Part shown: piece by piece, positions 31,320 through 61,873 of the stretch
Position numbering within the stretch: position 1 is the stretch's first letter
Layout: the number at the start of each line of letters is the position of its first letter
DNA from: a virus
Taxonomy: Duplodnaviria; Caudoviricetes
DNA: 64,000 nucleotides
Reading direction: 5' to 3' (one strand)
IMG/VR virus record: IMGVR_UViG_3300025809_001850
Program-made: the position numbers and the translations under genes
The notes under the pieces: generated by a model
What the model was told of the DNA's origin: nothing
Databases searched by the model: none
What the model saw: only the letters and a program-made list of their open reading frames with translations

Positions 31320-31354
31320 GTATTATTGAGTTATTATAATACTTATAATTGGTA

Positions 31355-31918
31355 ATGGAAGCACCAATGATAATCGGATTAACGGGTCTTGCTCGTTGTG
31401 GAAAAGATACTTTTTGTAATTATGCAAGAGAATACTTAAAATCAAAGAACTACGAATCACAACGACTTGCGTTTGCGGACGAACTTAAAAAGGATTTAGA
31501 TGCATTTTTGATTGAGAAACTTGGTATTTCAGCATTCACAGAAGTAACATCAGAAAAAGAAATTATACGTCCTATGCTTACAACATGGGGAACGGAGATA
31601 ATGCGTAAACAAGATGATTTGTGTTGGGTAAAAAAAGTGGAAGAAATCATTGTTGAAAATCAAAAAAATAATATAGTAAGTATTGTAACAGATATTCGTT
31701 TTCCAAATGAAATTGAATATATTCACAAAATGGGTGGATGTGTAATTCATTTGACTATGACAGGCAATAAACCTGCTAACGATTATGAAGCAGAAAACGA
31801 TCCATTGTTACGAAAGAATTCCAATTGCCATGTTGAATGGGAACGGTACGGAGATGATGCTCTAGAAAAGTGCATTGCTCATGTTGAAACTGCATTCAAA
31901 GAGTGCATCAACAAGTAA
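31355..31918 (+). CDS. phage deoxynucleoside-monophosphate kinase
   Basis: IIGLTGLARCGKDT, FADELK, RPML..WGTEIMR, VTDIRFPNE; start could be 31355 or 31367. Confidence 0.85.
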   Translation: MEAPMIIGLTGLARCGKDTFCNYAREYLKSKNYESQRLAFADELKKDLDAFLIEKLGISAFTEVTSEKEIIRPMLTTWGTEIMRKQDDLCWVKKVEEIIVENQKNNIVSIVTDIRFPNEIEYIHKMGGCVIHLTMTGNKPANDYEAENDPLLRKNSNCHVEWERYGDDALEKCIAHVETAFKECINK

Positions 31919-31960
31919 CTTTGTTTTTATAATTTCCTCGGAAACTTCTATTTATATAAT

Positions 31961-32725
31961 ATGAAGTATAATCCAAAGAAACGAAAAAGCACCAAAGAAG
32001 CACACGAAAACATGACATTCATGAATAGTCGTGAAGCACGATGGTTGAGAGTTCTTGCGGAATTGATGGAAACAGAAGCCAGAATGAAAAAAACTGGTAT
32101 TAGACACACAATTGTTTTTCAAGGAAGTGCAAGAATCAACGAAGAATCTGAACAATTTAAAAAGAACAAATATGATCGTTATTATACCGAAGCATATCAA
32201 CTCAGCAAGCAATTGACTGAGTGGTCAGAAGAAAACTTCACAGAACGAGAAAACAAATTTTATATCAGCAGTGGTGCTGGACCAGGCATTATGGAAGCAG
32301 CCAATAAAGGCGCACACGATGCAGGAGGAAAATCAGTTGGTCTTGGAATCAATCTTCCGTTTGAACAAACCAACAATGAGTATGTAACTCCTGAGTTGGA
32401 TTTTGTTTATCATTATTTCTTTACACGCAAATATTGGTTTCTTTATCAAGCAAAAGCATTGGTTGTATTTCCAGGTGGTTTCGGAACAATGGACGAACTA
32501 TTTGAAGCATTAACTTTAATTCAATGTCAAAAGATTGAAAAACCTGTTCCAACAATTTTATACGGAAAAGATTTTTGGGAAAATGTGATTGGTTGGGACA
32601 AATTTATTGAAGCAGGAACAATCAGCAAAAAAGACTTGAATTTGTTTAAAATTGTAGATGATGTAGAAACTGCAAAAACTTTTTTGATTGAACAGTTAAC
32701 AAAACACTATAAACTTCATTTTTAG
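31961..32725 (+). CDS. LOG-family nucleotide 5'-monophosphate phosphoribohydrolase (TIGR00730-like)
   Basis: GSAR, SGAGPGIMEAANKGA, INLPFEQ, FFTRK, PGGFGTMDELFE. Confidence 0.9.
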   Translation: MKYNPKKRKSTKEAHENMTFMNSREARWLRVLAELMETEARMKKTGIRHTIVFQGSARINEESEQFKKNKYDRYYTEAYQLSKQLTEWSEENFTERENKFYISSGAGPGIMEAANKGAHDAGGKSVGLGINLPFEQTNNEYVTPELDFVYHYFFTRKYWFLYQAKALVVFPGGFGTMDELFEALTLIQCQKIEKPVPTILYGKDFWENVIGWDKFIEAGTISKKDLNLFKIVDDVETAKTFLIEQLTKHYKLHF

Positions 32726-33403: not shown

Positions 33404-34564
33404 ATGAACAAAAAACTATTTACATCAGAAAGTGTGTCGAGTGGACATCCAGATAAAGTATGCGATCAAATTTCAGATGCAGTTCTTGACGCATTTTTGA
33501 CACAAGACCCCAACGCAAGAGTTGCGTGTGAAACATTTGCGACAACCGGATTGGTTGTTGTTGGAGGAGAAATTACCGCAGAGGGTTGGGTAAACTTTCA
33601 AGAAGTAGCACGTGAAGTTTTATCAGACATTGGATACACCAATGAAAAATACGGAATAAGTGCAAGTGGATGCTCTGTATTGTTTACAGTTGATCGTCAA
33701 AGTGCTGATATTGCTATGGGGGTTAATGAAAATGAAGGGGAGCACAAAGAAGCAGGTGCAGGTGATCAAGGACTTATGTTTGGATATGCTTGCAACGAAA
33801 CACCTGAACTTATGCCATTGCCTATTATGTTATCGCATCAAATTATCAAACGGGTAGAATCAGCAAGACACAACAAAGAACTTGAGTATCTTCGTCCTGA
33901 TGCAAAAGCACAAGTTACGGTGGAATACGATGAAAACGATAAACCAATTCGTGTAGATACAATTGTGTTATCAACTCAGCACGATGAGAATATAACGCAA
34001 GAAACAATCAAAGCAGATATAGAAGTTTTAATTCGTGAAGTTGTAAATGAAAAGTATTTAATGAACACCAAATTTCATATCAATCCAACAGGTCAATTCA
34101 TTATCGGTGGACCCCACGGAGATACAGGCCTTACTGGTCGTAAAATCATCGTTGATACTTACGGAGGAATGGCAAGACACGGAGGTGGAGCATTTAGTGG
34201 CAAAGACCCTACCAAAGTAGATAGAAGTGCGGCTTATATGGCACGACACGTTGCTAAAACAATTGTAGCAAGTGGAATAGCAGACAAATGTGAACTTCAA
34301 CTTGCTTATGCAATTGGAGTTGCGAAACCTGTGAGTGTTCGGATTGATACATTCCAAACAAGTAAAGTCGCCGAGACCAACATTGAAAATGCAGTTTTGA
34401 AAAACTTTGATTTAACACCAGAGGGAATCATCAACTACCTTGATCTCAGAAAACCTATTTATCGCAAAACTTCTTATCACGGACACTTTGGTCGTAACGA
34501 TGTTTCGTGGGAAAATATAAACGAAGACAAAAAACAAATTTTTGTGGAATTACAAAACAATTAA
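33404..34564 (+). CDS. metK: S-adenosylmethionine synthetase
   Basis: [64 protein letters not shown]. Confidence 0.97.
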
Positions 34565-34570
34565 AATATC

Positions 34571-35017
34571 ATGGCAGACGAAAAAGAAAAAGTAGCATTA
34601 TATGATGCAATTGATGCAAGCATATTAAAAACAATTCCAAATCCAAGCAAAGAACCTTACGAAATAAAAGTAAAAGTTCCTGAGTTTACATTTCTTGGTG
34701 TGAACGAACAACCAGATTTTGGTGTGCTTTATATCACAATTTATCCAACCAAGAAAATTATTGAACTTAAAAGTTTAAAGCAATACACTTATCAGTTGCG
34801 TAACATCGTTGTTTCATATGAACGACTTATCAACGTGGTATATGATCAGTTAATGCAAGTGTATGCTCCAGATCGTTTGCGGTTGGTTTTGAAAAGCAAT
34901 CCAAGAGGTGGTATCAGTAGTCGTTTGGTTATTGATAGTGATTGGTCTGCAAGAGGTGGCAAAGAAAAATATCGTGACTGGGGATCAACTGATGATTCTT
35001 GGGAAGTAACGATGTGA
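34571..35017 (+). CDS. QueF-like tunnel-fold protein lacking the catalytic cysteine
   Basis: PEFTFLGVNEQPDF, IIELKSLKQY (QueF motif), YE, PRGGI; no Cys anywhere in the protein. Confidence 0.75.
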   Translation: MADEKEKVALYDAIDASILKTIPNPSKEPYEIKVKVPEFTFLGVNEQPDFGVLYITIYPTKKIIELKSLKQYTYQLRNIVVSYERLINVVYDQLMQVYAPDRLRLVLKSNPRGGISSRLVIDSDWSARGGKEKYRDWGSTDDSWEVTM

Positions 35018-35063
35018 CTATAAAAACTCGTTTCCAATCATATTTATAAATTGGAGATGATGT

Positions 35064-35723
35064 ATGTTACTTTCGCACGACAAAAAGTTTTTATTCGTTG
35101 CAGTTCATAAAACTGGAAGCACTTCTATTAGAAGGTTGCTCAACAAATACACAGATGTAAAAGCATCATCGGATAGTAAATCACCTTACTTTTTTCATGC
35201 GTCTGCGTTATCGTTAAAGCATGAATTCGCAATGAATAAATGGAACTGGTCTTCTTATTTCAAATTTGGATTTGTTAGAAATCCGTGGGAACGATTAGTA
35301 TCAGCATATTTTTATCGTCAGAAAATGGTAAAAAAATGGAAAGAAAACCCACCTACCACCAATTTTTATCATAATGTCAATGAAGCATTTTCTTATGAAC
35401 TTGGAACAACAAAAAACTTCAAAGATTGGATAAAGAAGTTTTTGGTAAACGGAAAACATGAAATTGTAATGCATCAACACAAATATCTTGTTGATGAAAA
35501 TAAAAAATTGTTGATAAACTTTGTTGGAAAACTAGAAAACATAAATCAAGATTTTAATAAAATAATCAACAAACTTGGTGTAGACGTAAAACCTCTTGAA
35601 AACAAAAACAAATCAAATCACAGAAAGTATTCAACTTACTACGATGAATATACTCAAATGTTGGTGCATGATTATTACTCGGTTGATATAAATTTGTTTG
35701 AATATGAATTCAATGAAAAGTAA
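35064..35723 (+). CDS. carbohydrate sulfotransferase (Sulfotransfer_2-like)
   Basis: AVHKTGSTS, FGFVRNPWERLVS, NFVGKLENI. Confidence 0.85.
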   Translation: MLLSHDKKFLFVAVHKTGSTSIRRLLNKYTDVKASSDSKSPYFFHASALSLKHEFAMNKWNWSSYFKFGFVRNPWERLVSAYFYRQKMVKKWKENPPTTNFYHNVNEAFSYELGTTKNFKDWIKKFLVNGKHEIVMHQHKYLVDENKKLLINFVGKLENINQDFNKIINKLGVDVKPLENKNKSNHRKYSTYYDEYTQMLVHDYYSVDINLFEYEFNEK

Positions 35724-42721: not shown

Positions 42722-45700
42722 ATGGCAGAGGGAAAGAAAATTAGTGAATTGACAAAGGTATCTGAAATTTCTGATAACGATGAATTGCTTATGGTGAACA
42801 AAGAAGTCACCTCAGGCGATGACGCAGGTTCAGAAGGACAGACGAGTATAATCACATTTAGTGATTTAAAAGATGCAATTGGTTCACAAGGTCCTATGGG
42901 CCCAGCTGGACAAGTAGGTGACACAGGTCCTGCAGGACCTAAAGGTGAACCAGGTGATTCTGCGTTTGCAATCAATGATGGAAAGGTTTCACTTGGTGAC
43001 AACCACATCGGCATCGGAACAACTGATGCTCAAGTACCTTTACACATTTCAGGTAAACGACCTGCAATTAGACTGACCGACACGGAGTTACCAGGTACGG
43101 CAAACTTTGAAATAGTAAACAATGGTGATAAATTAGCATTTTTTAATCATCCAGGTTCTACCATTCTGGCTCTTACTGCCGATGGATCACTTGGTGTTGG
43201 AACTGAGACTCCTGCAGCTCGTTTACACATAGATGATAAGCACACAAACCAAGCAAGTGCTTCTGGTCAACTTTTGTTGAGCAATGGTGCAGCTAATGGT
43301 GGAAAGTGGGGAATTGGTACAACTGCTGATCAATGGAACATCGGTGGAGGTGGTAAGTTAGGATTTTTTGCTGACAATAATGCTGATGACGCACGTGTTG
43401 TATTTACACAAGACGGCCATGTTGGTATCGGTACATCTGATCCAGAGTGGCTACTTGACTTGCAGGGAAAAAACAGTACTGTACAACTTCATATGAGTCG
43501 TTCGGGGGATAACGTCGGTGAAGCATGGATGGGTGCAAACGAAAGTGGTTTTCATTTAGGTGTCGGTGAATATGGTGTGGGTAACGATCAATTAACACCA
43601 AACGGATTTTCAGTTTCTACACAAGGAAATGCAACTTTCAAAGGTAACATTGAAGCAAAATCATTTTCAATTGGTGGTACATCAGTCGGAGCAGCCGATT
43701 TAAAAGGACCAAAGGGAGACACAGGTCCTGTTGGTGCAACCGGTGCAGACGGAGTAGATGGTGAAGACGCATTTGCAAATCGTCATCTTGATCTTGCAAC
43801 CGATGGTCCTTTGGGTATGTCAATCGCATCTCCAAGTGGTCATAGTTTTTCTAAAACATCAGGTGACCAGCAATGGAACGCAGCTGTACATTCAAAAGTA
43901 GGATTTACAGGAGGATGCTATATAGCATTTGCTTCTTCATACAACAACAAGTATTTTATGATGGGTCTTTCCCAAGACGTAAATCGTGGAACAAATAGTG
44001 GTGATCATTATGACGGCATAGATTTCGCATGGTATTGTGCAAACGGTGTTGCTCAAATTTACGAAAGTGGATCAAACAAAGGATCGTTTGGTGCATATAG
44101 TGCAGGAGACAATTTTACTATTACATACGACAACGAAACTATTCGTTATTTCGTAAATGGTTCAGAAAAACGAGCAGTTCCTGTTGGAGAAAATAAAACA
44201 TTTTATTTAGATTCATCTGTGTATCATGTTGCAAACAACATAACAAAGTATCTTCATTTTGCACCAATGGCATCAAGGGGTGCAGTTGGAATGACAGGTC
44301 CTCAAGGTCCTATCGGTGCAGAAGGTCCCAGTGGAGTTCAAGGTGAAAAAGGTAACGCAGGTGAAAAAGGTGAACCAGGAGTTGCGGGTAACCCAATGTC
44401 TGTTGCAGAACCAATTAATCGTTGGGATGCATCTAACTATTCAACTGGTGCATTGTTGTATCCATTAAAAGGGTCTGCTCAACTGAATGTTGTAGGAAAC
44501 GTTATTACAACTGACGATGAACGAGGAAAAGTATTTGAATTTCCTGCGGTTCCTGGTGGATTAAACAAAACACAATTATGGTCACCTGATATTTGGGATG
44601 CAGAAATTGCAGATGGAACATTTTCGTGGTCTGTGTGGGTAAAACCAAGATCACTCAACGCAACGACAGATGATACAAAAGGACATGGATCAGTAATTGC
44701 TAAATGGAATACGGCAAGTCCGGTGGACGGTGGAAATAATTCATTTATTTGTTATGCTAACGGAACATTCGTATCATCATTTTCATATTCAACAACTCCT
44801 CTTAATAATTGGACACCTGAATTAAACAAATGGACACATTTAACATGGACATTAAATAATGGAGTGTGTACGTTATATGCAAATGGAAAACTCATTCCAA
44901 CTGTATCAAGTCCTGCCGTGGCATCCTCCGACTACCGAGTAACAGAAAGTTCATATAATCCTGCAACGATGGGTGATTCAAACTTTATGTCTACAATACA
45001 ATCACAGGGAGACCTAATTTATATAGAAGATTTGCTCGCAGACCCAAGTATTATTACCAAAATCGGAGCATCTGAGTTAAATAATGTAGGAATGGTTGTG
45101 CGTGATCCTAGCAAGTTAAGTAAACTGAACGGAACTACACGTACACTTTACTATGATCAAACAAGTCCTTCTCTTAAACGTAATTATTATTTACAAACAG
45201 GAACAAGTGGACTTACACACACATACAATGGAAGTCATCCATTTAGTGAATATAATTTATACATTAAATCTTGGACTGGTTCATATCAGTATCTTGTTTC
45301 TGATCCAATCGTGTCCAACGGTTCCAGTCCACAACACCAATTCAAAAATAGTTCAGAGAGAATCCGTGTAGGAGCTCTTTCTTCACGTGGGCATTATCAG
45401 TTTAATGGTAGCATCGATGATGTTAAGTTTTACGATGTTGCACTTGATGAAGGTGAAGTTTATTTTGCTTACAATGGTATCGGTGGTGGAGGACTTGTGG
45501 GTCCTCAAGGTCCTGCGGGTATCGGAGAACCAGGAGAAAAAGGTGACATAGGTCCTCAAGGTCCTGCTGGAATTCAAGGTGAACGTGGTCAAGAAGGTAT
45601 TCCTGGAACACCCGGTGAACCAGGTGAACCAGGTGATAAAGGTGATAAAGGTGATAAAGGTGATAAAGGTGATTCAACTCTTATGAATTTTGCGTCCAAT

Positions 45701-48526
45701 GTAAATTGGGAAATCGCAACTAATAGACCAACTTATTCATCTCAAGATGGTGATTTGTTTGGTGTTAATGGAACAGCTGCGGAAAACTCGGTGGCATGGG
45801 GAAATGATCCATTTGGTCGTAGAGTCAAAATTTGGAAAGCAAGAAACAATGACGCAGCTTCCAATGCAGATGGTGGATGGGGAAAAATCATCAAGGGACT
45901 TAAGAAAAATGCAGGATATATGTCTGTTGTTTATATTCGTAGAAATGGAACAAGCACAAATGGTAGATTTTATCATGGATGCAAACAAGGCACAGATACA
46001 CTCAACTTGGATGGTACACCAAATGGAAATCCATATTTTCATTATCCAACAATCGGTGAATTGCCACAAGACAAATGGTTATTGTCGGTAGGATTTATTC
46101 GTGCTAATAATGATACAAGTACAACTCAGTCTGGATTAAGTGGAATATACGATGTTACAACAGGTAAAAAACTTACATTGTCGAGAAGTTTCGGTGATTA
46201 TAAAATGGGAACATCGGGTGTACAATCACATAGAACTTATTTGTATTACTCAACAAACGGAAATGATTCAATTGATTGGACATTACCTGGTTTTTACGAA
46301 CTTGGTAGTGATGCTCCTACAATAAACGATCTATTGAAAATAGGTGGTGGAGGTGGTGCTTCTGCGGTATCCACCAACTATCAAGTAACAGAAAGTTCAT
46401 ATAATCCTGCAACGATGGGTGATTCAAACTTTATGTCTACAATACAATCACAGGGAGACCTAATTTATATAGAAGATTTGCTCGCAGACCCAAGTATTAT
46501 TACCAAAATCGGAGCATCTGAGTTAAATAATGTAGGAATGGTTGTGCGTGATCCTAGCAAGTTAAGTAAACTGAACGGAACTACACTATCACTTTACTAT
46601 GATCAAACAGATCAAGGTCTAAAACGTAATTATTATTTACAAACAGGAACAAGTGGACTTACACACACATACAATGGAAGTCATCCATTTAGTGAATATA
46701 ATTTATACATTAAATCTTGGACTGGTTCATATCAGTATCTTGTTTTATCTGCAACCGGAGGAGTGCCTGGTGCAAGAGGCCCACAAGGGGAACAAGGTCC
46801 TCCCGGTGACGTCCGAGAATTAGCAAGCACAACACTTCCAAGTCTGAAAACTCAAGCACTTACTATGGAAGGTGACATTCGCATGGCACAACATAGTGTG
46901 CGTTTTGGAAATGCTTCAACACGAATCTTTGATTCAAGTGGAACTCCACACTACTACTCAGCATCTGCCGTTCATAACTTTAATAGTTCGGATGGTGGGA
47001 AGGCAACTGTTAATGTGAATACAATTTCTACTGCAAAATTTAGTAGTTCTGCAATGAAGTTTGGTGAAAAGGACAAAGAAACACAAGTAGATTTCTTGGG
47101 AACGTTGACTTGTGGCAATGTTGTAATAAATAAAAGTGGTCATCAGATGTATGGTGGTTCTCAGATTACTTCTATGTCGGAAAACAACGGCGCAGGAAAT
47201 CATCTTTATACCACAAATGATGGTGTGTTTCATATACAACCAAGAGAACGTAATGGTAACAATGATAAACTTGCAAGAGTTTCTTTTAATAGTCGTTTAA
47301 GAATTGATACGTCCGATAGAGCAAATACATACATTACTGCTCATACGAATCCATCACGTGATCCTGGCACTTCGCAAGACGGTCCTAGAACACTACATTT
47401 GGAAGCACCAAAGGGTGACATCAATATCCGAGCAGGTGATGGTTCACGTGGTTGGGGTACAATCATGCTTCGTGCAAGAGGGTACGTATCAACTATGGGT
47501 ATCTCAAAGAAACCAAATGAATATTTTGGAAATCCTTGGTTTTCTTCAAAAAATGCCGCCAGAGAAACGATAATTAGAATTATGGGTGGAGCAATGTTCC
47601 CTGAGAAGGGTCATACTGATCTCGGAACACCGAACTTTGAGTATCGTTTTGATACGTTGTATGCAAAGAATCACATAGATACCGGTTCTGACAAACGTCT
47701 TAAACGACAAATTGAAAAATCAGATTTGGGACTTGAGTTTATTACAAAACTTAAACCAGTTAAATACAAGTATAAGTCCGAGAAAATCAAAGACCAGGAG
47801 ACCGGAAAAGTTCAGACTATTGATCACAATCGTTTTCACTACGGATTGATTGCTCAAGATGTCAAGGAAGCACTTGGTGATACGGATTTCAGTGGATATG
47901 TTGATCCTGCTCATGGTGGTGAAGAACTGCCTGAAAAAGATGCTATGTTAGGTCTTCGTTATGGTGAGTTTATTTCACCTATGATTATGGCAATTAAACA
48001 ACTTGATAGAAAACTTGATAAACTTGAAACTGCGGATGTAAACAAGAAGAAGAGAATTGGTGACCTTGAACAGAAACTTGAGAAGAAGCATAAAATGCAA
48101 ATGCAGAAAATCAAGGATATAGAAACAAGTGAAACTACAACAGAATCAGAACCTGTGTTGACCGCTAAAGAACTGGACGCAAGGGTAGAAGAAAAGTTCA
48201 AGTCAGCAGAAGCAGAACGAGAAACTAGATTGCGTGAAATGGAAGAACACCTTGAAACCACACGAAAAGAGTTGGCATTGGAATTTCCTTCTCATTGGGG
48301 TGATCAACCCGAAATGGAAACCAACGATTATGTGAAGTTACCAGGTCATTATGGATGGGGTAGTTCAACACTTAAAAATTGGATTGAAGTTAATATGCAG
48401 TCTGACAGAAATGAAATGGATGAATCAAAAACTCTTAACCTAAAGATTTTGGATACTCTTAAAACAATAAACGAAAGATTAACAAGACTGGAAGGCAATT
48501 CTGATCCAGAAACACAAGAACTATAA
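42722..48526 (+). CDS. long tail fibre/spike protein with collagen-like segments, LamG domain and peptidase-S74 chaperone
   Basis: N-terminal KKISEL, VGIGT repeats, five Gly-X-Y runs, LamG (WTHLTWT..LYANG..FNGSIDDVKFY), GSDKRLK..LKPVKY..YGLIAQDV..LRYGEFI. Confidence 0.85.
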   Translation: MAEGKKISELTKVSEISDNDELLMVNKEVTSGDDAGSEGQTSIITFSDLKDAIGSQGPMGPAGQVGDTGPAGPKGEPGDSAFAINDGKVSLGDNHIGIGTTDAQVPLHISGKRPAIRLTDTELPGTANFEIVNNGDKLAFFNHPGSTILALTADGSLGVGTETPAARLHIDDKHTNQASASGQLLLSNGAANGGKWGIGTTADQWNIGGGGKLGFFADNNADDARVVFTQDGHVGIGTSDPEWLLDLQGKNSTVQLHMSRSGDNVGEAWMGANESGFHLGVGEYGVGNDQLTPNGFSVSTQGNATFKGNIEAKSFSIGGTSVGAADLKGPKGDTGPVGATGADGVDGEDAFANRHLDLATDGPLGMSIASPSGHSFSKTSGDQQWNAAVHSKVGFTGGCYIAFASSYNNKYFMMGLSQDVNRGTNSGDHYDGIDFAWYCANGVAQIYESGSNKGSFGAYSAGDNFTITYDNETIRYFVNGSEKRAVPVGENKTFYLDSSVYHVANNITKYLHFAPMASRGAVGMTGPQGPIGAEGPSGVQGEKGNAGEKGEPGVAGNPMSVAEPINRWDASNYSTGALLYPLKGSAQLNVVGNVITTDDERGKVFEFPAVPGGLNKTQLWSPDIWDAEIADGTFSWSVWVKPRSLNATTDDTKGHGSVIAKWNTASPVDGGNNSFICYANGTFVSSFSYSTTPLNNWTPELNKWTHLTWTLNNGVCTLYANGKLIPTVSSPAVASSDYRVTESSYNPATMGDSNFMSTIQSQGDLIYIEDLLADPSIITKIGASELNNVGMVVRDPSKLSKLNGTTRTLYYDQTSPSLKRNYYLQTGTSGLTHTYNGSHPFSEYNLYIKSWTGSYQYLVSDPIVSNGSSPQHQFKNSSERIRVGALSSRGHYQFNGSIDDVKFYDVALDEGEVYFAYNGIGGGGLVGPQGPAGIGEPGEKGDIGPQGPAGIQGERGQEGIPGTPGEPGEPGDKGDKGDKGDKGDSTLMNFASNVNWEIATNRPTYSSQDGDLFGVNGTAAENSVAWGNDPFGRRVKIWKARNNDAASNADGGWGKIIKGLKKNAGYMSVVYIRRNGTSTNGRFYHGCKQGTDTLNLDGTPNGNPYFHYPTIGELPQDKWLLSVGFIRANNDTSTTQSGLSGIYDVTTGKKLTLSRSFGDYKMGTSGVQSHRTYLYYSTNGNDSIDWTLPGFYELGSDAPTINDLLKIGGGGGASAVSTNYQVTESSYNPATMGDSNFMSTIQSQGDLIYIEDLLADPSIITKIGASELNNVGMVVRDPSKLSKLNGTTLSLYYDQTDQGLKRNYYLQTGTSGLTHTYNGSHPFSEYNLYIKSWTGSYQYLVLSATGGVPGARGPQGEQGPPGDVRELASTTLPSLKTQALTMEGDIRMAQHSVRFGNASTRIFDSSGTPHYYSASAVHNFNSSDGGKATVNVNTISTAKFSSSAMKFGEKDKETQVDFLGTLTCGNVVINKSGHQMYGGSQITSMSENNGAGNHLYTTNDGVFHIQPRERNGNNDKLARVSFNSRLRIDTSDRANTYITAHTNPSRDPGTSQDGPRTLHLEAPKGDINIRAGDGSRGWGTIMLRARGYVSTMGISKKPNEYFGNPWFSSKNAARETIIRIMGGAMFPEKGHTDLGTPNFEYRFDTLYAKNHIDTGSDKRLKRQIEKSDLGLEFITKLKPVKYKYKSEKIKDQETGKVQTIDHNRFHYGLIAQDVKEALGDTDFSGYVDPAHGGEELPEKDAMLGLRYGEFISPMIMAIKQLDRKLDKLETADVNKKKRIGDLEQKLEKKHKMQMQKIKDIETSETTTESEPVLTAKELDARVEEKFKSAEAERETRLREMEEHLETTRKELALEFPSHWGDQPEMETNDYVKLPGHYGWGSSTLKNWIEVNMQSDRNEMDESKTLNLKILDTLKTINERLTRLEGNSDPETQEL
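44938..45299 (+). repeat. 362-bp internal direct repeat, copy 1 (copy 2 at 46384-46745)
   Basis: Read base by base: identical except 10 substitutions in 45141-45175. Confidence 0.95.
46384..46745 (+). repeat. 362-bp internal direct repeat, copy 2
   Basis: Offset 1446 bp from copy 1; in frame. Confidence 0.95.
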
Positions 48527-50468: not shown

Positions 50469-50487
50469 ATTTCATGTGGAGAGAAAA

Positions 50488-51681
50488 ATGAGAGATGATG
50501 AATTAAAATTACCTGAGTTTAAGGTAAACGAAACGATGAGTACCCTCAGTCAACGAATTGATTGGGGATTGCGACAATTGAATGTACCAAAAACATGGAG
50601 CATTACACGTGGTGAGGGAATTACTGTTATGGTAATTGACACAGGACATCCTGTTCATCCTGACATCGGTGATAATGCAATAGAAGGAAAAAACTGCATT
50701 CCCAATGAACCAATTGAAGATGAAAACGGACATCAATCTCATTGTACAGGTATCATTTGTGCAAAAGACAATGAAACTGGAATGGTGGGTGTTGCTCCTG
50801 GATCAAAATGTATTTCAGTAAAAGCATTAAGTAAAAGTGGAAGTGGAAGTTATCGTGGATTGGCAGAAGCATTGGATTATGCAATTGAAATGAAACCAGA
50901 CTTGATAAGCATGAGTTTAGGAGGTTCTTCACCTTCAGCTGCTATGCAATCACGCATACAAAAATTGTACGATATGAATATTCCTGTTATTTGTGCAGCT
51001 GGAAACTCAGGTGATGGTGGAGTTAATTATCCAGCAGCCTTTGATGAAACAATAGCAGTTGCAGCTTACGACAAATACGGAAATGTAGCAAGATTTTCTT
51101 CTAAAGGAGAAAAAGTAGAATGGGCTGCTCCTGGTGTAAACATTTATAGTACATATCTTAACAATGGATATGCTAGTTTAAGTGGAACTTCAATGGCGTG
51201 TCCGTTTATTGCGGGTGTTGTGGCGTTGATGCTTGCAAAGCACAAAAAGCAAGAAGAATCAACTGGTATGAACGATTGTAAAACAGTTGAACAAATTCGT
51301 GAGCATCTTCTTAAATACACCAAAGACAAAGGTGAAGTCGGCCGTGACAATTCATGGGGATACGGAGTTATTGATGTAGAGAAACTTATCGGTGGTGGTG
51401 ATATTGAACAACCAGTTCCAACACCTACTCCAACACCTACTCCAATAGAAAAACCAACACCTCAACCACCTGAAGAGAAACCTGTGGAAAAAGAACCGGT
51501 GAAAGAAGAACCAAAAAAGAAAAACAAAAACACTTTATTTATTGTTATTGGAGTTGTGGTAATTGCAACAATTATTGGAATTGCCGTGGTAATGAACAAC
51601 AAAGTTGATATACCAACACCACCTTATTATGATGAAAATGGTGAAATCAATTGGGACAAGAAATTTGAACTTGATCGATAA
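50488..51681 (+). CDS. subtilisin-like serine protease (S8) with Pro/Thr linker and C-terminal membrane anchor
   Basis: Catalytic VIDTG (D), HQSHCTGII (H), GTSMACP (S), AAGNSG; LFIVIGVVVIATIIGIAVVM TM segment. Confidence 0.9.
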   Translation: MRDDELKLPEFKVNETMSTLSQRIDWGLRQLNVPKTWSITRGEGITVMVIDTGHPVHPDIGDNAIEGKNCIPNEPIEDENGHQSHCTGIICAKDNETGMVGVAPGSKCISVKALSKSGSGSYRGLAEALDYAIEMKPDLISMSLGGSSPSAAMQSRIQKLYDMNIPVICAAGNSGDGGVNYPAAFDETIAVAAYDKYGNVARFSSKGEKVEWAAPGVNIYSTYLNNGYASLSGTSMACPFIAGVVALMLAKHKKQEESTGMNDCKTVEQIREHLLKYTKDKGEVGRDNSWGYGVIDVEKLIGGGDIEQPVPTPTPTPTPIEKPTPQPPEEKPVEKEPVKEEPKKKNKNTLFIVIGVVVIATIIGIAVVMNNKVDIPTPPYYDENGEINWDKKFELDR

Positions 51682-52391: not shown

Positions 52392-52973
52392 ATGGGAACT
52401 GATGGAAAAACAATTTTTCCGACTGAATATTTGTCGGCTGATTACTTTGAAAAAGTCGGAGGTCGCAAAGCATATGCATTTTGGTTGGTTGGTAATAGTG
52501 GAAGTGGTAAAAGTACACTCACTAAGACCGTAGAAACAATGCTGATGGAACATGAATATTGGGTAAAGTGCTTAGACGGAGACAATATGCGAAGCACCAT
52601 CAATTCAGACTTGGATTTGTCAGTTGAATCTAGAACAGAAAATGTTCGTAGAAGTGCTGAAATTTCAAAAATGTTTTTGATGAATGGAACAACTACAATT
52701 AATTGTTTTATTTCTCCAACTGAAGAAAGTCGTAATCAAGCACAAAAAATTATTGGTGAACGTTTTTGTTTGATTTATATCAAAGCATCACATGAAGAAG
52801 TTAAAAAACGAGATGTTAAAGGATTATACAAAGATAATGCTGAAAACATGAACAATTCTTTGAATTTATTTGAAGAACCTAGTGACCCTGATTTGATTAT
52901 AGACACCACAGGTAAAACGATAAAATATTCTGCGAATATTTTATTTAATTTTATAATAAACCAACCCATTTGA
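52392..52973 (+). CDS. cysC: adenylylsulfate (APS) kinase
   Basis: WLVGNSGSGKST, LDGDNMR, RTENVRR, FISP, RDVKGLY, FEEP. Confidence 0.88.
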   Translation: MGTDGKTIFPTEYLSADYFEKVGGRKAYAFWLVGNSGSGKSTLTKTVETMLMEHEYWVKCLDGDNMRSTINSDLDLSVESRTENVRRSAEISKMFLMNGTTTINCFISPTEESRNQAQKIIGERFCLIYIKASHEEVKKRDVKGLYKDNAENMNNSLNLFEEPSDPDLIIDTTGKTIKYSANILFNFIINQPI

Positions 52974-52988
52974 TATTTATAAAAAGAG

Positions 52989-53894
52989 ATGAAAAAATGT
53001 AATTTAACACACTTAGAGGAACTTGAAGCAGAAAGCATTCATGTGTTGCGAGAAACCGCTGCACAATTTTCAAGTTCAACATTGCTTTTTAGTGGTGGTA
53101 AAGATAGTTTGGTCTGTCTGCACCTTATCGCAAAAGCATTTTATCCTGCTAATGCTCCGTTTGTTGCACTTCATGTCGACACAGGACACAACTTTCCAGA
53201 GGTAATGGAATTTCGTGACAAAGTTCTTGAACAATACAAAATGAAATTATTTGAACGCAAAGTTGAAGATGCGATTGCAGAAGGTCTTATTAAAGATGAA
53301 ATCGGCATCGGTGCAACTCGTAACGAACTTCAAATACCTGTGCTTCTTGATGCAATTGAGCATCACAAGTTTGATGCTTGTTTAGGAGGAGCAAGACGAG
53401 ACGAAGAAAAAGCAAGAGCAAAAGAACGTTTCTTTTCACATCGTGATGACTTTGGTCAATGGGACCCAAAAAATCAACGACCAGAAATTTGGGATGCATT
53501 TAACGGAAAGAAAAATCAAGGTGAACACTTTCGTGTATTTCCAATCAGTAATTGGACTGAACTTGACGTATGGACTTATATAAAACAAGAAAACATTCCG
53601 TTGCCATCATTATATTTTTCACACAAAAGAAAATGCTATGAACGTGACGGAGTTTGGTATGGTCACGCTGATTACATTAAATTAAAAGACGATGAAAAAC
53701 TAGAAGAAAAAGTAGTTCGCTTTCGTTCAATTGGTGATGTAACAACAACTGGTGCTTGTTTAAGTACTGCAAACAATCTTGATGATATTATCGCAGAAGT
53801 TGCAAGTGCAACCACAACTGAACGTGGAACAAGAGGAGACGATAAAAAATCCGATACAAGTATGGAAGATCGTAAGCAACAAGGATATTTCTAA
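52989..53894 (+). CDS. cysD: sulfate adenylyltransferase subunit 2
   Basis: LEAESIHVLRE, LFSGGKDS, HVDTGHNFPE, GGARRDEEKARAKER.FS, WDPKNQRPE, RVFPISNWTELD, MEDRKQQGYF. Confidence 0.95.
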   Translation: MKKCNLTHLEELEAESIHVLRETAAQFSSSTLLFSGGKDSLVCLHLIAKAFYPANAPFVALHVDTGHNFPEVMEFRDKVLEQYKMKLFERKVEDAIAEGLIKDEIGIGATRNELQIPVLLDAIEHHKFDACLGGARRDEEKARAKERFFSHRDDFGQWDPKNQRPEIWDAFNGKKNQGEHFRVFPISNWTELDVWTYIKQENIPLPSLYFSHKRKCYERDGVWYGHADYIKLKDDEKLEEKVVRFRSIGDVTTTGACLSTANNLDDIIAEVASATTTERGTRGDDKKSDTSMEDRKQQGYF

Positions 53895-53895
53895 G

Positions 53896-55233
53896 ATGGC
53901 AAAGAACAACAACAACGATAAAGAAAACAAGAAACCTGTGGAAAATCAAAAAAAAGAACCAAAACAGAATGTTGATAAGTTGCAAAACAACGAACTTCTT
54001 CGTCTTTCAACTGCGGGTAGTGTAGATGATGGCAAAAGTACCTTAATTGGTCGTTTACTTTACGATACAAAAAGTGTGATGAAAGATCAATACGAAGCAG
54101 TTCGTGCCACTTCCAAAAAGAAAGGTGAAGAAGAAGTAAATCTTGCTTATTTGACAGACGGACTTAAAAGTGAACGTGAACAAGGAATCACGATTGACGT
54201 AGCATATCGTTATTTTAATACTGCGAATCGTAAGTTTATTATTTCAGATACACCAGGACACGTTCAATACACTCGTAATATGATTACAGGTGCAAGTAAA
54301 AGCAACGTTGCAATTATTTTGGTTGACGCACGAAAAGGAATTTCTGAACAAACAAGAAGGCATTCGTTTATTGCAAGTCTTTTGAAAATACCTCATGTTA
54401 TTTATGCGGTAAATAAAATGGACTTGATTGATTATGATGAGCAAAAGTTCAATAAAATTCGTAATGAACTTAAACAATTTAGTGCAAAATTAAGATGTAA
54501 CGATATTCGTTTTATTCCTATATCAGCATTAAAAGGTGATAATGTTACAACCAAGAGTCAAAAAACATCTTGGTATAAAGGTGGTCATTTGCTTGGTATG
54601 CTTGAAAACATTGAAATTTTCTCTGACAATAATTTGGTAGACGCACGATTTGATATTCAAACTGTGATTCGTCCTCATAGTGATAAATGGCATGACTTTC
54701 GTGGATACGCAGGAAAAATCGTAAGTGGTAGTTTTGAAAAAGGACAAAAAGTTTCTGTGCTTCCAAGTGGATTTGAAACACGAATTAAAGATATGCGAGT
54801 ATATAAGGATTTAATAAATCATGCGTGTACACCTGCGAGCATCGTAATGCAACTTGAAGATGATATAGATGCAGGTCGTGGTGATATGATTGCCCGTGTA
54901 GATAATCTTCCAAAAACTTCTCAAAATTTTGATGCAATGATTTGTTGGATGTCGGATGGTGTTATGCAACCTCGTAAAAAATATTTGCTAAAACACGGAA
55001 GCAACGAAGTAACTGCTATGATTACAAAAAAGGTTTATACATTAGATGTAAATACTTTCAGTAAAGCAGAAGATCAAACATTGCAACTTGGATTAAATGA
55101 TATTGCAAGAATCAGCATAAAAACAAGCAAACCCATTAACTTTGATTCATTTGAAAGCAATCGTGCCAATGGAAGTTTTATTTTAATTGATACGCAAACA
55201 AATGAAACACTTGCCGCTGGAATGATAAAGTGA
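53896..55233 (+). CDS. cysN: sulfate adenylyltransferase subunit 1 (GTPase)
   Basis: LLRLSTAGSVDDGKSTLIGRLL, EREQGITIDVAYRYF, DTPGHVQYTRNM, VNKMD, GSFILID; no fused CysC. Confidence 0.94.
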   Translation: MAKNNNNDKENKKPVENQKKEPKQNVDKLQNNELLRLSTAGSVDDGKSTLIGRLLYDTKSVMKDQYEAVRATSKKKGEEEVNLAYLTDGLKSEREQGITIDVAYRYFNTANRKFIISDTPGHVQYTRNMITGASKSNVAIILVDARKGISEQTRRHSFIASLLKIPHVIYAVNKMDLIDYDEQKFNKIRNELKQFSAKLRCNDIRFIPISALKGDNVTTKSQKTSWYKGGHLLGMLENIEIFSDNNLVDARFDIQTVIRPHSDKWHDFRGYAGKIVSGSFEKGQKVSVLPSGFETRIKDMRVYKDLINHACTPASIVMQLEDDIDAGRGDMIARVDNLPKTSQNFDAMICWMSDGVMQPRKKYLLKHGSNEVTAMITKKVYTLDVNTFSKAEDQTLQLGLNDIARISIKTSKPINFDSFESNRANGSFILIDTQTNETLAAGMIK

Positions 55234-56288
55234 AAACTGTAATTGTAACGGGTGGTCTTGGATACATCGGTAGTCATACCGTTGTGGAACTTTTAAATGC
55301 AAATTATGATGTGGTGGTTGCAGACAATTTGTCAAATTCTTCGGAAAAAGTAATTGACGGAATTCGTCAAATCACGGGCAAAAGTATAACCTTCGTTAAT
55401 CTTGATATTCGTGATTATTTTAAATTAGAGTCATTGTTAGGATTTTATCAGCAAAGCACAATTGGTGTAATTCATTTCGCTGCTTGTAAAAGTGTCGGAG
55501 AAAGTATGAAAGAACCAAGCAAGTATTATGATAATAATGTTACAGGTACAAACAACTTGCTTAAAGCAATGAAACGATACAAAGCAGATAATCTGGTGTT
55601 TAGTAGCAGTTGCACTGTTTATGGTCAAGCAGATGATTTACCAGTCACAGAACAAACTCCACAAAAACCTGCGGAAAGTGTTTATGGTCGTACCAAGCAA
55701 ATTTGTGAGCAAATGATAAAAGATTTTCACACAGAACACAATTACAATTCTGTGCTTCTTCGTTATTTCAATCCAATTGGCGCACATGAAAGTTCTTTGA
55801 TTGGAGAACTTCCAAACGGAACTCCCGACAACCTTTTACCGTACGTCGCCGAGACTGCAAGTGGAAAACGGAAATTGTTTACTGTGTTCGGAGAAGACTA
55901 TGACACCGAAGATGGAACTTGCGTTCGTGATTACCTTCATGTGGTTGATTTGGCAAAAGCACACGTTTTGGCATTGGAAGTTTCGGTGGAAAAAAATCTG
56001 AAAGCAGAACCTGTTAATTTAGGAACAGGTACTGGATATTCCGTGAAACAAGTTCTTGAAGCATTTGAAAAAGAAAACGACATTAAGATAAACACTCACT
56101 ACGGAAATCGTAGAAAAGGAGATGTTGAAGCAATTTATGCAGACCCAAGTTACGCAGAAAAGTTGCTTGGATGGAAATCAAAACTTGGATTAAAAGAAAT
56201 GGTAACTTCAGTTTGGAACTGGCAAAAAACAATATCAAGCAAATGTTGTGGTGGTGGTTGTGGTTGTCATGTAAACAAAGAAATTTAG
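55230..56288 (+). CDS. galE: UDP-glucose 4-epimerase
   Basis: VTGGLGYIGSH, IHFAACKSVGES, FSSSCTVYG, YGRTK, LRYFNPIGAH, DGTCVRDYLHVVDLA. Confidence 0.94.
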   Translation: MKTVIVTGGLGYIGSHTVVELLNANYDVVVADNLSNSSEKVIDGIRQITGKSITFVNLDIRDYFKLESLLGFYQQSTIGVIHFAACKSVGESMKEPSKYYDNNVTGTNNLLKAMKRYKADNLVFSSSCTVYGQADDLPVTEQTPQKPAESVYGRTKQICEQMIKDFHTEHNYNSVLLRYFNPIGAHESSLIGELPNGTPDNLLPYVAETASGKRKLFTVFGEDYDTEDGTCVRDYLHVVDLAKAHVLALEVSVEKNLKAEPVNLGTGTGYSVKQVLEAFEKENDIKINTHYGNRRKGDVEAIYADPSYAEKLLGWKSKLGLKEMVTSVWNWQKTISSKCCGGGCGCHVNKEI

Positions 56289-56585: not shown

Positions 56586-56828
56586 ATGAAACATAAAATC
56601 GAGTTAACAACCGAAGAAATGCTTTGCATTGCTCAGTCAACTGAACGAAATCTACAAAATGCTATTGACAACAATATACCATGTAGGATATTATTTTATA
56701 CAAATATGCGAAATAAAATACAATTAGCACTTTCAGGACCTGTAGCTCAGTGGTTAGAGCAGGACACTCATAATGTCTTGGCCGCAGGTTCAAATCCTGC
56801 CAGGTCCACCATTGTACTTTCCAACTAA
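56586..56828 (+). CDS. hypothetical protein whose 3' end overlaps the tRNA
   Basis: ATG 2 nt after the previous stop; frame stays open through the tRNA. Confidence 0.35.
   Translation: MKHKIELTTEEMLCIAQSTERNLQNAIDNNIPCRILFYTNMRNKIQLALSGPVAQWLEQDTHNVLAAGSNPARSTIVLSN
56736..56811 (+). tRNA. tRNA with CAU anticodon, most likely tRNA-Ile2 (lysidine-modified, reads AUA)
   Basis: GGACCTG/CAGGTCC acceptor, GCTC/GAGC D arm, CTCATAA anticodon loop, GGTTCAAATCC T arm, A73 and encoded CCA, 76 nt; resembles E. coli ileX rather than initiator Met. Confidence 0.92.
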
Positions 56829-56830
56829 TT

Positions 56831-57706
56831 ATGATAGATTTCAAAAATGTAACTAAAATTGTGACTCATCCAGGTCATGCACATAGAGACGACTTTCTGT
56901 CGGTCTGTTTTGTTCTTGCAATGTGTTCACAACATCAAAATATGCCATCAGTTTACAGACGTGATCCAACAGAGCATGAACTGAAAGACCCCAACATTGT
57001 AGTGATTGATATCGGAGAACGACACGAACCTGAGTTGAGTAACTTTGATCATCATCAATTTCCACGTGATCACAAACCATGTTGTGCATTATCTTTAATT
57101 TTACAGAATATGACCATCTACGAAGAAGCAAATCGTGGATTTCGTTGGTTAACTGTAACTGAAAAGTTTGATAGCAAGGGACCATACGAGGTGGCAAAAG
57201 ATATCGGAGTAGATTGGAATACCATTTCAGATGCTACATTTTCTCCTGTAGAGGAGGCTGTGTTACATCTATTTGCAAAAACATTTGATGGTGGTCAAAG
57301 TGGAATATATCTGGGTTTAATGACTACCATCGGAACTGAGTTACTAAACACCCTTGAGATGTTCACAGGTCGTTGGCAACAATTATCAGATTCAATTACG
57401 ACATCGTTGGTATACGGAAACGAAGTAGTATTTTCACTTGGTATTTTGGGTGACAATGATCCTTCATTTGCATTGAGTGCATATGTTGAAGAAAATCATC
57501 CGAATGCAGTTGCCACAATCACCCACGATGATCGAGGAGATGGTTATTGTCTGTTTAGACTCAATGATAGTTCAAAGATTGACTTTTCTAAAATTGAGAA
57601 TGACGAACACATATTATTTGCTCACAAAAATGGATTCGTGGCAAAGACTCATACTACAATTTCAAATGAAAAACTTATTGAACTTCTTGAAAAATCTTCA
57701 AAATAA
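56831..57706 (+). CDS. MYG1-family (DHH-related) exonuclease
   Basis: THPGHAHRDDF, VIDIG, FDHHQ, FAHKNGFVA. Confidence 0.75.
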   Translation: MIDFKNVTKIVTHPGHAHRDDFLSVCFVLAMCSQHQNMPSVYRRDPTEHELKDPNIVVIDIGERHEPELSNFDHHQFPRDHKPCCALSLILQNMTIYEEANRGFRWLTVTEKFDSKGPYEVAKDIGVDWNTISDATFSPVEEAVLHLFAKTFDGGQSGIYLGLMTTIGTELLNTLEMFTGRWQQLSDSITTSLVYGNEVVFSLGILGDNDPSFALSAYVEENHPNAVATITHDDRGDGYCLFRLNDSSKIDFSKIENDEHILFAHKNGFVAKTHTTISNEKLIELLEKSSK

Positions 57707-57729
57707 ATCGACTTTTTATAACTTTGGTG

Positions 57730-57758
57730 TTGACTTTTTACAGTAAGTTTGGTACTAT
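57730..57758 (+). promoter_or_regulatory. sigma70-type early promoter
   Basis: TTGACT-N17-TACTAT. Confidence 0.75.
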
Positions 57759-57794
57759 ATATACATAATCAAGATTAAACCAATTAAGACAAAT

Positions 57795-58397
57795 ATGAAA
57801 AATAAAATACTACTAATCGCAATCGCAACTTCGTTTTTCGCAAGCAGTTTATCTGCCAATAATGGGTGGGGTTCAAAGCAAACTTCACGCACCGTTGGTG
57901 GTGCTTTAGGTGGAGCAACTATCGGTGGAATCATTGGACATCAACACGGCAAGCAAAAAGAAGGAATCATCATTGGTTCTGTACTTGGTATGCTCATCGG
58001 AAACAAAAGTGGCAAGGGTCACGATTCACGAATGGAGCAACAGAGGTGGGAACAACAACAACGAGAAATGGCACAACGTGAAGAGTTGCGTAGACATGAA
58101 CAAGAACGTCAACGTCAATATCGTGTACAACAAATGCGTACCAACACAAGTTCCAATTCGGTTAGATCTTCTTCAGATGAACTAACCCAAGCACGTCATC
58201 GTGCAGAACAACGTGAAGCAGAACTTCAACGTGAAATGGAAATTATACGAATTCAACAAGAACGTCGCAGAGCATTAGAAGAATATCGTCAACGTGAAAT
58301 TCAAGCACAACAACAACTTGAAAGAGTTCGCAACGGAGAATCAGTTCAAACTCAGTCTTCAAGCAGTTCTAGGTATTCTCACAATCTTAGTTATTAA
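57795..58397 (+). CDS. glycine-zipper (2TM) exported protein with coiled-coil tail
   Basis: Signal-peptide-like N-terminus; GGALGGATIGGIIG..GSVLGMLIG; Q/R/E-rich helix. Confidence 0.75.
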   Translation: MKNKILLIAIATSFFASSLSANNGWGSKQTSRTVGGALGGATIGGIIGHQHGKQKEGIIIGSVLGMLIGNKSGKGHDSRMEQQRWEQQQREMAQREELRRHEQERQRQYRVQQMRTNTSSNSVRSSSDELTQARHRAEQREAELQREMEIIRIQQERRRALEEYRQREIQAQQQLERVRNGESVQTQSSSSSRYSHNLSY

Positions 58398-58418
58398 TAA
58401 AAAATTTATTTAAAACAA

Positions 58419-58709
58419 ATGCAAAAACAAATCAAAGATCTACCGATTGCTTTTCAATCATTATTTGCGGAATTGAAGGCAGAAAAAGATGCAGAAGAAG
58501 GATCGTCAACTGACTATGTAATTCAACCAACCAAGAAGGATGTTCAAGAAGAATACGAACAACTTGACACCGTTCTTGAAGAAGAAAACGAAGCAGATTA
58601 TGATGAGTATGATGAAAACACATATGATATGAATGCAGTATCCCCTTATATGCGAGATGCGTTTGGAGAACTTGATGAAGACGAAGACGAAGAATACGAC
58701 TACGAATAA
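58419..58709 (+). CDS. highly acidic hypothetical protein
   Basis: D/E-rich 96-aa ORF. Confidence 0.6.
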   Translation: MQKQIKDLPIAFQSLFAELKAEKDAEEGSSTDYVIQPTKKDVQEEYEQLDTVLEEENEADYDEYDENTYDMNAVSPYMRDAFGELDEDEDEEYDYE

Positions 58710-58737
58710 GTAAACTCAAATCAATTTAAACTAAATA

Positions 58738-59106
58738 ATGCAGAAAATACCATTAGCTTTGTTGATCAGTTTCGTTGCATTTGTTGGATATCTCGTAATA
58801 TCTAAAGTATCAGGTGGTGACTTTACCAATCAACTTGAAGTTTATGTTGGTGGTGACAAAATATTACATCTGGTGCTTGCATTCGTATTGTCGTTACTTT
58901 CAATGATGTCATTTTCACACAAATTTTCCAGCTGGAACATCTTGACAGTATTAATGATTATACTGACAATTGAAGAAACTGCTCAATATTTTTTACCAAA
59001 TCGTCATTTTGGATTTGATGATTTAATTGCAGGGTGGAGTGGATTGATATGTGGAGGACTTTTATACAACTTAATAAAAACACTAACAAAAATAAGATAT
59101 GAATGA
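58738..59106 (+). CDS. VanZ-like membrane protein
   Basis: DKILHLVLAFVL, EETAQYFLPNR.FGFDDLIAG. Confidence 0.75.
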   Translation: MQKIPLALLISFVAFVGYLVISKVSGGDFTNQLEVYVGGDKILHLVLAFVLSLLSMMSFSHKFSSWNILTVLMIILTIEETAQYFLPNRHFGFDDLIAGWSGLICGGLLYNLIKTLTKIRYE

Positions 59107-59176
59107 GAACAGCGCACCTTGGGGAACAATATTATTAATTTTAATCGCAATGATGCTTATTATGTGGAAATGTTGA
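59099..59176 (+). CDS. possible 25-aa single-TM peptide
   Basis: MNENSAPWGTILLILIAMMLIMWKC, overlapping the VanZ stop. Confidence 0.3.
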   Translation: MNENSAPWGTILLILIAMMLIMWKC

Positions 59177-59379
59177 TTATGGACGATTATATCAATTTTG
59201 CAAACCTACCACATATTCTTACGATAACACATCGTCAAACTAATCAATTGATTTTAAAAAAGAAATTCAGCAACGAAGGTGATGCATTGCAGTATATGAA
59301 CGAAGCCAGAGAATTTCAAAATAACAAACAAAACTTTAGTTTCGTGATCTCTGGTCCTAATATGTATTATAGCACCTGA
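59170..59379 (+). CDS. hypothetical protein
   Basis: ATG at 59170 or 59179 preferred over the TTG at 59119. Confidence 0.45.
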   Translation: MLIMDDYINFANLPHILTITHRQTNQLILKKKFSNEGDALQYMNEAREFQNNKQNFSFVISGPNMYYST

Positions 59380-60065: not shown

Positions 60066-60119
60066 CTTTTTATAATAAATTTGGTAGTATACTTGTATTG
60101 AGAGTGACTAAGAACCAAA
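60051..60119 (+). promoter_or_regulatory. sigma70-type early promoter cassette (TTGACT 60062, TAGTAT 60085), repeat copy 1
   Basis: 65/69 nt identical to 63753-63821. Confidence 0.85.
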
Positions 60120-60145
60120 TTAAAAATTCAAACAAAAGAGAGAAA

Positions 60146-60589
60146 ATGAATATTGAACTAAGCAATCCTGTGATTTCCAAGTTGGCAAACGATTATGTTA
60201 TGTCGTTTCTTCATCATACTGGTGAAAATACCAAGCATATCAACAATCAACAAAGTGGGGACGTTAAATTTTATCACGCAGATGGTTTCGGAAATTTGTC
60301 GGAAAAATCAAATAATATGTATTCCGAATCAATGAAGGATATGTTGTTTGATTGGAGTCACGTTCGTGATTCATCTGATGAAGCATTTCTTGCAATGGCA
60401 CACGCAATAAGTGCTTGTGTTCCATGTGAAGCAAAATTTGCTGATTCGTTGCTTGATTTTAAGACATACGTTGCAAATCATTTTCAAGACCTTCGCAGAG
60501 AATTGGATTATTATACATTGCACGAACCTGATGCAACTTCAGAGATTGACAGAATTGATCAAGAACTATATCACGAAGCACAAGTTTAA
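60146..60589 (+). CDS. hypothetical protein
   Basis: ATG at 60146 downstream of promoter and GAGAG. Confidence 0.65.
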   Translation: MNIELSNPVISKLANDYVMSFLHHTGENTKHINNQQSGDVKFYHADGFGNLSEKSNNMYSESMKDMLFDWSHVRDSSDEAFLAMAHAISACVPCEAKFADSLLDFKTYVANHFQDLRRELDYYTLHEPDATSEIDRIDQELYHEAQV

Positions 60590-60590
60590 G

Positions 60591-61872: not shown

Positions 61873-61873
61873 A

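Follow-up and report, generated by a model that had tools for sequence, protein, structure and literature searches.

A phage-encoded, cysteine-free relative of QueF beside metK: a candidate flavin-free 5,10-methylene-THF reductase

A QueF homologue that has lost the cysteine on which QueF catalysis depends raises the question of what chemistry, if any, its fold still performs, and what use a phage could make of it. Such a protein, here called P0001, is encoded within a stretch of 64,000 nucleotides of a Caudoviricetes virus (IMG/VR record IMGVR_UViG_3300025809_001850; hereafter the window), in a gene that begins 6 nt downstream of metK (Table 1). From the letters of the sequence, the initial annotation had noted a QueF signature retained in a protein without any Cys, and had proposed either a new T-fold chemistry or a decoy that binds preQ0 or other purines and could alter the queuosine metabolism of the host.

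Table 1. Coordinates of the P0001 gene, its diagnostic segments and the preceding metK gene in the window
Feature	Position	Strand	Basis
metK (S-adenosylmethionine synthetase)	33404..34564	+	ORF; tblastx to bacterial metK
P0001 gene, Cys-free QueF-fold protein ('FLG type' / class A)	34571..35017	+	ORF, translation, PF14489
PEFTFLGVNEQPDF segment, residues 37-50	34679..34720	+	alignment to 4f8b, 4fgc
ELKSLKQY, QueF motif, residues 65-72	34763..34786	+	sequence; NADPH/substrate helix
Ser82-Tyr83-Glu84 (SYE), residues 82-84	34814..34822	+	alignment to Phe95-His96-Glu97 of B. subtilis QueF
S-N-PRGGIS-S hairpin (PRGGIS, residues 111-116)	34895..34921	+	homologue alignments

The ORF of P0001 is intact, running from an ATG start through 148 codons to a TGA stop, and its translation contains no Cys at all. 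In a Pfam scan at E<=1, the only domain returned is QueF (PF14489, E 3.6e-16), with neither PF02219 nor GTP_cyclohydroI, while TIGR03139, the curated QueF equivalog profile, scores the protein at 83.7 bits, under its cut-off of 86.9 bits. P0001 is 29-32% identical to B. subtilis QueF (bsQueF), which is also the best structural match of its AF2 model (mean pLDDT 76; TM about 0.65), followed by GTP cyclohydrolase I and archaeal QueF-L. The phage family phrog_5949 carries the name 'GTP cyclohydrolase I', a label common to T-fold proteins. That assignment is rejected because P0001 has no Cys for the Cys/His Zn site of that enzyme, its Pfam domain is QueF, and GTP cyclohydrolase I structures rank below QueF.

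Compared with unimodular QueF (YkvM type, EC 1.7.1.13; B. subtilis structures 4F8B and 4FGC), P0001 retains the T-fold, the QueF motif helix and the PRGG loop, and the motifs PEFT..QPDF, ELKSLKQY, SYE and PRGGIS read as the initial annotation described them. Its ELKSLKQY segment fits the QueF motif, E(S/L)K(S/A)hK(L/Y)(Y/F/W), at seven of eight positions, the motif definition and the numbering and roles of bsQueF residues being those of PMC13740343. Three acidic residues are kept: Asp49 (34715-34717) aligns with the general acid Asp62, Ile64-Glu65 corresponds to Val77-Glu78 of the QueF motif, and Glu84 corresponds to Glu97, which anchors the substrate. In contrast, the position of the catalytic thioimide Cys55 is occupied by Gly43 (codon ggt, 34697-34699) in the alignment to 4f8b and 4fgc, the protective Cys99 is replaced by Leu86, and the pocket is remodeled, with Phe33, Phe95, His96 and the stacking Ile130 replaced by Ile22, Ser82, Tyr83 and Ser117, respectively.

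These replacements are not peculiar to one contig. A search of 5.8 billion proteins yields 3296 homologues at E<=1e-5, and PEFTFLG(V/M)..QPDF is found in all 108 motif-readable sequences among the best 120 of them; homologues with Gly at the same site are thus widespread, and the concern that the Cys loss might be unique to this DNA is dispelled. In a library of 1.84 billion representative sequences, QueF-type proteins fall into two sharply distinct classes. The canonical class has T[SC]xCP, Phe22 and F[YHM]E, whereas in the Cys-less class, to which about 60 clusters at 50% identity among the best 150 matches belong, T-F-x-G, Ile/Leu22, S-Y-E and, mostly, Ser117 co-vary. TIGR03139 scores are likewise bimodal, at 84-92 bits for Cys-less proteins (87-92 for the relatives of P0001) and 175-179 bits for canonical QueF. 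Given that the former straddle the cut-off, databases name some members 'preQ(1) synthase' and others 'hypothetical'. Across 51 homologues, Gly43, Gln47, Pro48, Asp49 and Phe50 never vary; Glu65, Leu66 and Lys70 are likewise invariant in the homologue alignment, and P0001 has every family-invariant residue. The Cys-less family also has a conserved C-terminal tail of its own, DSDW..RGG.E...DW....W, which differs from that of canonical QueF. Informative domain fusions are absent from it, the only long forms being six singletons that are probably gene-calling artefacts.

Bacterial members 65-74% identical to the phage protein occur in Bacteroidota, Kangiellaceae/Pleionea, Syntrophorhabdaceae, Bacillota and others. 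Most of them have a single Cys, at 'CNPRGG', and it is Ser (Ser109 in P0001) in the phage clade, which is therefore wholly Cys-free. This residue was considered as a relocated catalytic Cys and rejected, as position 109 varies among C, F, T, L, S and M across the Cys-less class and is Phe in bsQueF. The viral sequences form a single clade (support 100) that is placed among Bacteroidota sequences with weak support (81). Its sister is P0025, a metagenomic protein of 156 aa whose N-terminal half resembles the phage proteins and whose C-terminal half, containing 'NCNPRGG', resembles the bacterial ones; recombination or a transitional state could account for it. Purifying selection on the viral clade is strong, with dN/dS of 0.015-0.086 between P0001 and its viral relatives. 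Although a single base change (GGT to TGT) separates Gly43 from a Cys codon, a sequencing error at this site is hard to reconcile with a Gly that is invariant in hundreds of independent sequences, and a decaying pseudogene with an intact frame under purifying selection; the chance of either is negligible. On these sequence features, P0001 is probably functional and belongs to a large Cys-less family, sister to QueF, in which the T-fold, the NAD(P)H motif, the Glu anchor and the Asp acid are retained. This sister family is not described in the literature that was found: a 2026 QueF review treats YkvM and YqcD as the sole subfamilies, the family is absent from both that review and GapMind, and literature searches returned no paper that links QueF proteins to MTHFR, MetH or folate.

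Since the thioimide Cys is absent from the subfamily, thioimide catalysis is impossible in it; in QueF itself, C55A and related mutants are inactive (PMC13740343). Among 151 Bacteroidia genomes searched with the family profile, nine encode the Cys-less type (259-283 bits), seven encode canonical QueF (45-66 bits) and 135 encode neither. QueC is found in none of the nine Cys-less carriers versus all seven canonical-QueF genomes, where it often adjoins queF, and TGT is present in all 16 genomes with either type. Neither queuosine nor dpd genes adjoin the Cys-less gene in 76 bacterial loci whose ORFs were called and clustered, and nothing in the window resembles queC or tgt, tblastx with bacterial queC, queF and tgt loci having matched only the P0001 gene and metK. 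The protein could still be a 7-deazaguanine enzyme, either a Cys-independent reductase of salvaged preQ0 or one that takes part in deazaguanine modification of phage DNA; its homology to QueF, the TGT of all carriers and the name preQ(1) synthase in some databases would fit. Against this stand the inactivity of the C55A-type mutants, the missing QueC, the 135 Bacteroidia with neither QueF type (not the spread expected of a general queuosine enzyme), the lack of queuosine or dpd neighbors, the tblastx result in the window and TIGR03139 scores at or under the cut-off, which together leave it highly improbable. P0001 is not a queuosine enzyme, and the proposed decoy of host queuosine metabolism falls with the missing QueC and queuosine neighbors, as the gene instead tracks metH, thyX, metY, metK, SAM riboswitches and the absence of MetF. 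Of the new T-fold chemistry suggested at the outset, the spirit survives, in that the family is conserved, selected, Cys-less and remodeled in its pocket, but the preQ0/queuosine frame does not.

The neighborhoods of the bacterial homologues, which the initial annotation had singled out as worth inspecting, are those of methionine and one-carbon metabolism. In 39 of the 76 loci, the Cys-less gene adjoins metH, and the layout takes several independent forms. Cyclobacteriaceae, Flammeovirgaceae and relatives (Bacteroidota) have a split metH, with the gene placed between its homocysteine-domain half and its pterin/B12/activation half; Pleionea, Kangiellaceae and some Bacteroidota have a full-length metH that points away from the gene in a divergent pair; and in a Halanaerobiales MAG, the two genes are co-directional. 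In 16 loci, from Syntrophorhabdaceae and relatives, thyX lies directly 5' of the gene, an adjacency that suits a user of methylene-THF without being specific to an MTHFR. In Chitinophagaceae, the gene is found between metY and a homoserine dehydrogenase gene. A SAM-I riboswitch (RF00162, 69-83 bits) precedes the operon in six of eight loci scanned, which represent three lineages. Thus, the Cys-less gene tracks methionine/one-carbon genes, not queuosine genes. Other recurrent neighbors, namely MerR, DprA, CitMHS, MFS, TPR, HisRS, HMGL-like, glyoxalase, GNAT and helicase genes, reflect lineage synteny and are uninformative. It may also be recorded that a conserved 123-aa protein that has no Pfam match (cluster c10; L006:6850-7221 and relatives) is encoded 5' of thyX and the Cys-less gene in 13 loci of the Syntrophorhabdaceae type.

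A second association, with the absence of MetF, emerges from whole genomes, in which MetF was scored by PF02219, so that each absence is that of a match to one Pfam model in draft genomes. Among the 151 Bacteroidia, MetF is absent from eight of nine carriers versus nine of 142 non-carriers (Fisher p 3.7e-8, or 4.6e-9 without the hand-picked centre genome). In the order of Pleionea (51 genomes), it is absent from five of six carriers, the sixth having a PF02219 match of only 106 bits, versus 14 of 45 non-carriers (p 0.022); because carriers of the same clade are related, these p-values overstate independence. In the phylum of Syntrophorhabdus (61 genomes), the sole genome without a PF02219 match is one of the three carriers (versus 0/58 non-carriers), and the other two have an atypical 75-bit match in a 528-aa ORF and a normal MetF. 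With two additional carriers, G005 (no MetF) and G004 (MetF present), counted along with the three genome samples, PF02219 is absent from 15/20 carriers versus 23/245 non-carriers. MetF-less Bacteroidia carriers retain a methionine synthase that depends on methyl-THF, MetH in seven of eight and a full-length MetE in the eighth (G009), and Syntrophorhabdus (G003) also has a full-length MetE, whereas in MetF-less Bacteroidia non-carriers MetH is absent as well in eight of nine. Most MetF-less carriers have the gene on a different contig from metH, and the phyletic signal is therefore independent of that from adjacency. The relation between the gene and MetF is not strictly one-or-other, as three carriers have a clear MetF (G001 Marinoscillum, G004 and G252), and in Marinoscillum metF is in the same operon as the Cys-less gene.

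Two minor observations came from the same genomes. G148, a member of Bacteroidia, has both MetH and MetE and neither MetF (PF02219) nor the Cys-less gene, which reflects either an incomplete assembly or another route to methyl-THF. In the phylum of G003, ORFs of 500-680 aa in G206, G215, G226, G233, G236, G237, G259 and G263 give weak, partial PF02219 matches (57-75 bits) and appear to form a distinct family of MTHFR-like fusions.

We consider it likely that the Cys-less protein is an NAD(P)H-dependent, flavin-free 5,10-methylene-THF reductase, a non-homologous substitute for MetF that the phage uses together with MetK for SAM supply. In the second half-reaction of QueF, a hydride from NADPH is delivered to the exocyclic imine carbon on C7 of a 7-deazaguanine, with Glu97 holding the base and Asp62 serving as the acid. 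The remodeled pocket can be argued, by homology, to fit a folate. A tetrahydropterin held in the manner of QueF would place N5 at the position of C7 and the 5-iminium carbon at that of the QueF imine carbon. Glu84 would hold the 2-amino-4-oxo-pyrimidine ring of the pterin as QueF holds preQ0, Asp49 would protonate N10 to open the imidazolidine ring and give the 5-iminium cation, and NAD(P)H would then deliver its hydride to the exocyclic carbon on N5, with no thiol required at any point. The switch would need a Gly in place of the Cys, smaller or polar side chains in place of Phe33, Phe95 and Ile130, and a new conserved C-terminal tail. All known methylene-tetrahydropterin reductases use a 5-iminium cation whose formation is triggered by a carboxylate, and in Mfr the hydride comes directly from NADH without a flavin (PMC11094777).

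The reaction that we infer for P0001 is that of MetF/MTHFR (PF02219), and the Cys-less gene occupies the place expected of metF: it belongs to metH operons controlled by SAM riboswitches, and most of its occurrences are in genomes that lack MetF. The proposed mechanism matches that of flavin-independent mycobacterial Mfr, in which a carboxylate acid initiates a direct NAD(P)H-to-5-iminium hydride transfer (PMC11094777). However, MetF, Mfr and Mer all adopt the (beta-alpha)8 barrel, MetF with FAD, and share no homology with a T-fold protein of 148 aa. Without PF02219 and with a T-fold, P0001 can be a functional analogue of MTHFR only. Other QueF relatives differ from it as well. Archaeal QueF-Like (archaeosine synthase; 5JYX, 5K0P), a T-fold relative in the fold search, has the thioimide Cys but no NADPH motif (PMC5485725), the reverse of P0001. 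The QueC-QueF fusion of S. pneumoniae has, like P0001, a QueF domain without the catalytic Cys, which does not support the use of preQ0, but it is reported to be a decayed, inactive remnant in one genus (bioRxiv 10.1101/2025.10.13.681863), whereas the Cys-less family is widespread, spans phyla at 65-75% identity and evolves under purifying selection. Its conserved C-terminal tail and its methionine/folate gene neighbors, instead of queC/D/E, set this family apart from unimodular QueF.

Much of this evidence would apply equally to an enzyme or accessory of the methionine/folate cycle that is not an MTHFR, such as a reductase that repairs oxidized folates (5-methyl-dihydrofolate, quinonoid or 7,8-dihydrofolate), another methylene-THF/methenyl-THF oxidoreductase or a helper of MetH. 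The neighborhoods and riboswitches do not distinguish between the two, the link with thyX suits any folate-handling role, and the presence of the gene and metF in one operon of Marinoscillum suggests that they are not redundant. Such a role would, however, leave unexplained why carriers so frequently lack MetF and yet retain MetH or MetE, and it is regarded as unlikely. One variant, the replacement of DHFR, was rejected, as DHFR (PF00186) is present in four of five carriers tested and would not need replacing. It has also to be asked whether the protein catalyzes anything. T-folds bind purines and pterins, and a fold that has lost its nucleophile, like the Cys-less domain of S. pneumoniae reported to be inactive (bioRxiv 10.1101/2025.10.13.681863), might persist as a carrier, sensor or decoy. 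That Asp49, the NAD(P)H motif and Glu84 never vary between members from different phyla (65-75% identity), that dN/dS is 0.02-0.09, and that complementarity with MetF points to a catalytic replacement make a mere binder improbable.

The wider claim that follows from the MTHFR reading, to which we lean with somewhat less assurance than to the reading itself, is that a third, structurally unrelated way of reducing methylene-THF may exist, in which a QueF-derived T-fold of 145 aa without flavin or Cys replaces MetF in many Bacteroidota, Kangiellaceae/Pleionea, Syntrophorhabdus and others, and has been captured by abundant marine megaphages as an auxiliary gene, paired with metK, that drives the supply of methionine and SAM. 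The reaction is so far known from the TIM-barrel enzymes MetF and Mfr only, and MetF has been described as the sole known source of 5-methyl-THF. If the assignment is true, it would fill an unrecognized gap in the many genomes that have MetH or MetE but no MetF, and correct a widespread 'preQ(1) synthase' misannotation that inflates predictions of the queuosine pathway. It would also show how a covalent nitrile reductase can become a simple iminium reductase through the loss of its nucleophile, and add a methyl-cycle pair, MetK and a maker of methyl-folate, to the auxiliary metabolic genes of ocean phages.

In the phage, the short gap between metK and the P0001 gene contains no terminator-like site. 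Downstream, just 5' of a sulfotransferase gene that starts at 35064, TATAAAT is followed by GGAG at 35045-35066, the former matching the T4 late-promoter consensus TATAAATA at 7/8 positions; this late-promoter-like site implies that metK and the P0001 gene may end one transcription unit. In the closest relative, the TARA contig L092, the order of metK and the gene is kept and MetK is 89% identical, with a different gene downstream, while in more distant viral relatives the gene lies 3' of transaldolase and near ribonucleotide reductase. The phage gene would be co-transcribed with metK, and the pair would channel one-carbon units of the host, by way of its MetH or MetE, toward methionine and SAM in the infected cell. 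Supplying SAM through MetK and a maker of methyl-THF would parallel the supply of PAPS to the sulfotransferases by the surrounding island itself. The gene lies in a glycan-tailoring island, with many glycosyltransferases, two flanking sulfotransferases, dTDP-rhamnose-type genes and sulfate activation by CysC/CysD/CysN. No methyltransferase was identified near the P0001 gene by Pfam among the 50 window ORFs scanned.

Several other features of the window deserve mention. On the 5' side of the sulfotransferase-metK block, a dNMP-kinase-like gene (PF21448) and a gene of the LOG/SLOG 'lysine decarboxylase' family (PF03641) occupy 31349-32725. The sulfate-activation set, at 52392-55233, is complete, comprising an APS kinase (CysC), a CysD-like protein of the PAPS_reduct fold and a CysN-like GTPase, and is followed by a GDP-mannose-dehydratase-type enzyme at 55230-56288. 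Between these blocks, positions 42722-48526 encode a 1934-aa fibre-like protein with collagen repeats, a laminin-G/ConA-like domain and a Peptidase_S74 intramolecular chaperone, after which come a DUF6174 protein and a subtilase (50476-51681). The region 56736-63635 carries cargo that is unusual for a phage, including tRNA-Met (CAT) at 56736-56811, an MYG1-like protein, a rhomboid protease at 59379-60065 and a UvdE UV endonuclease at 62646-63635.
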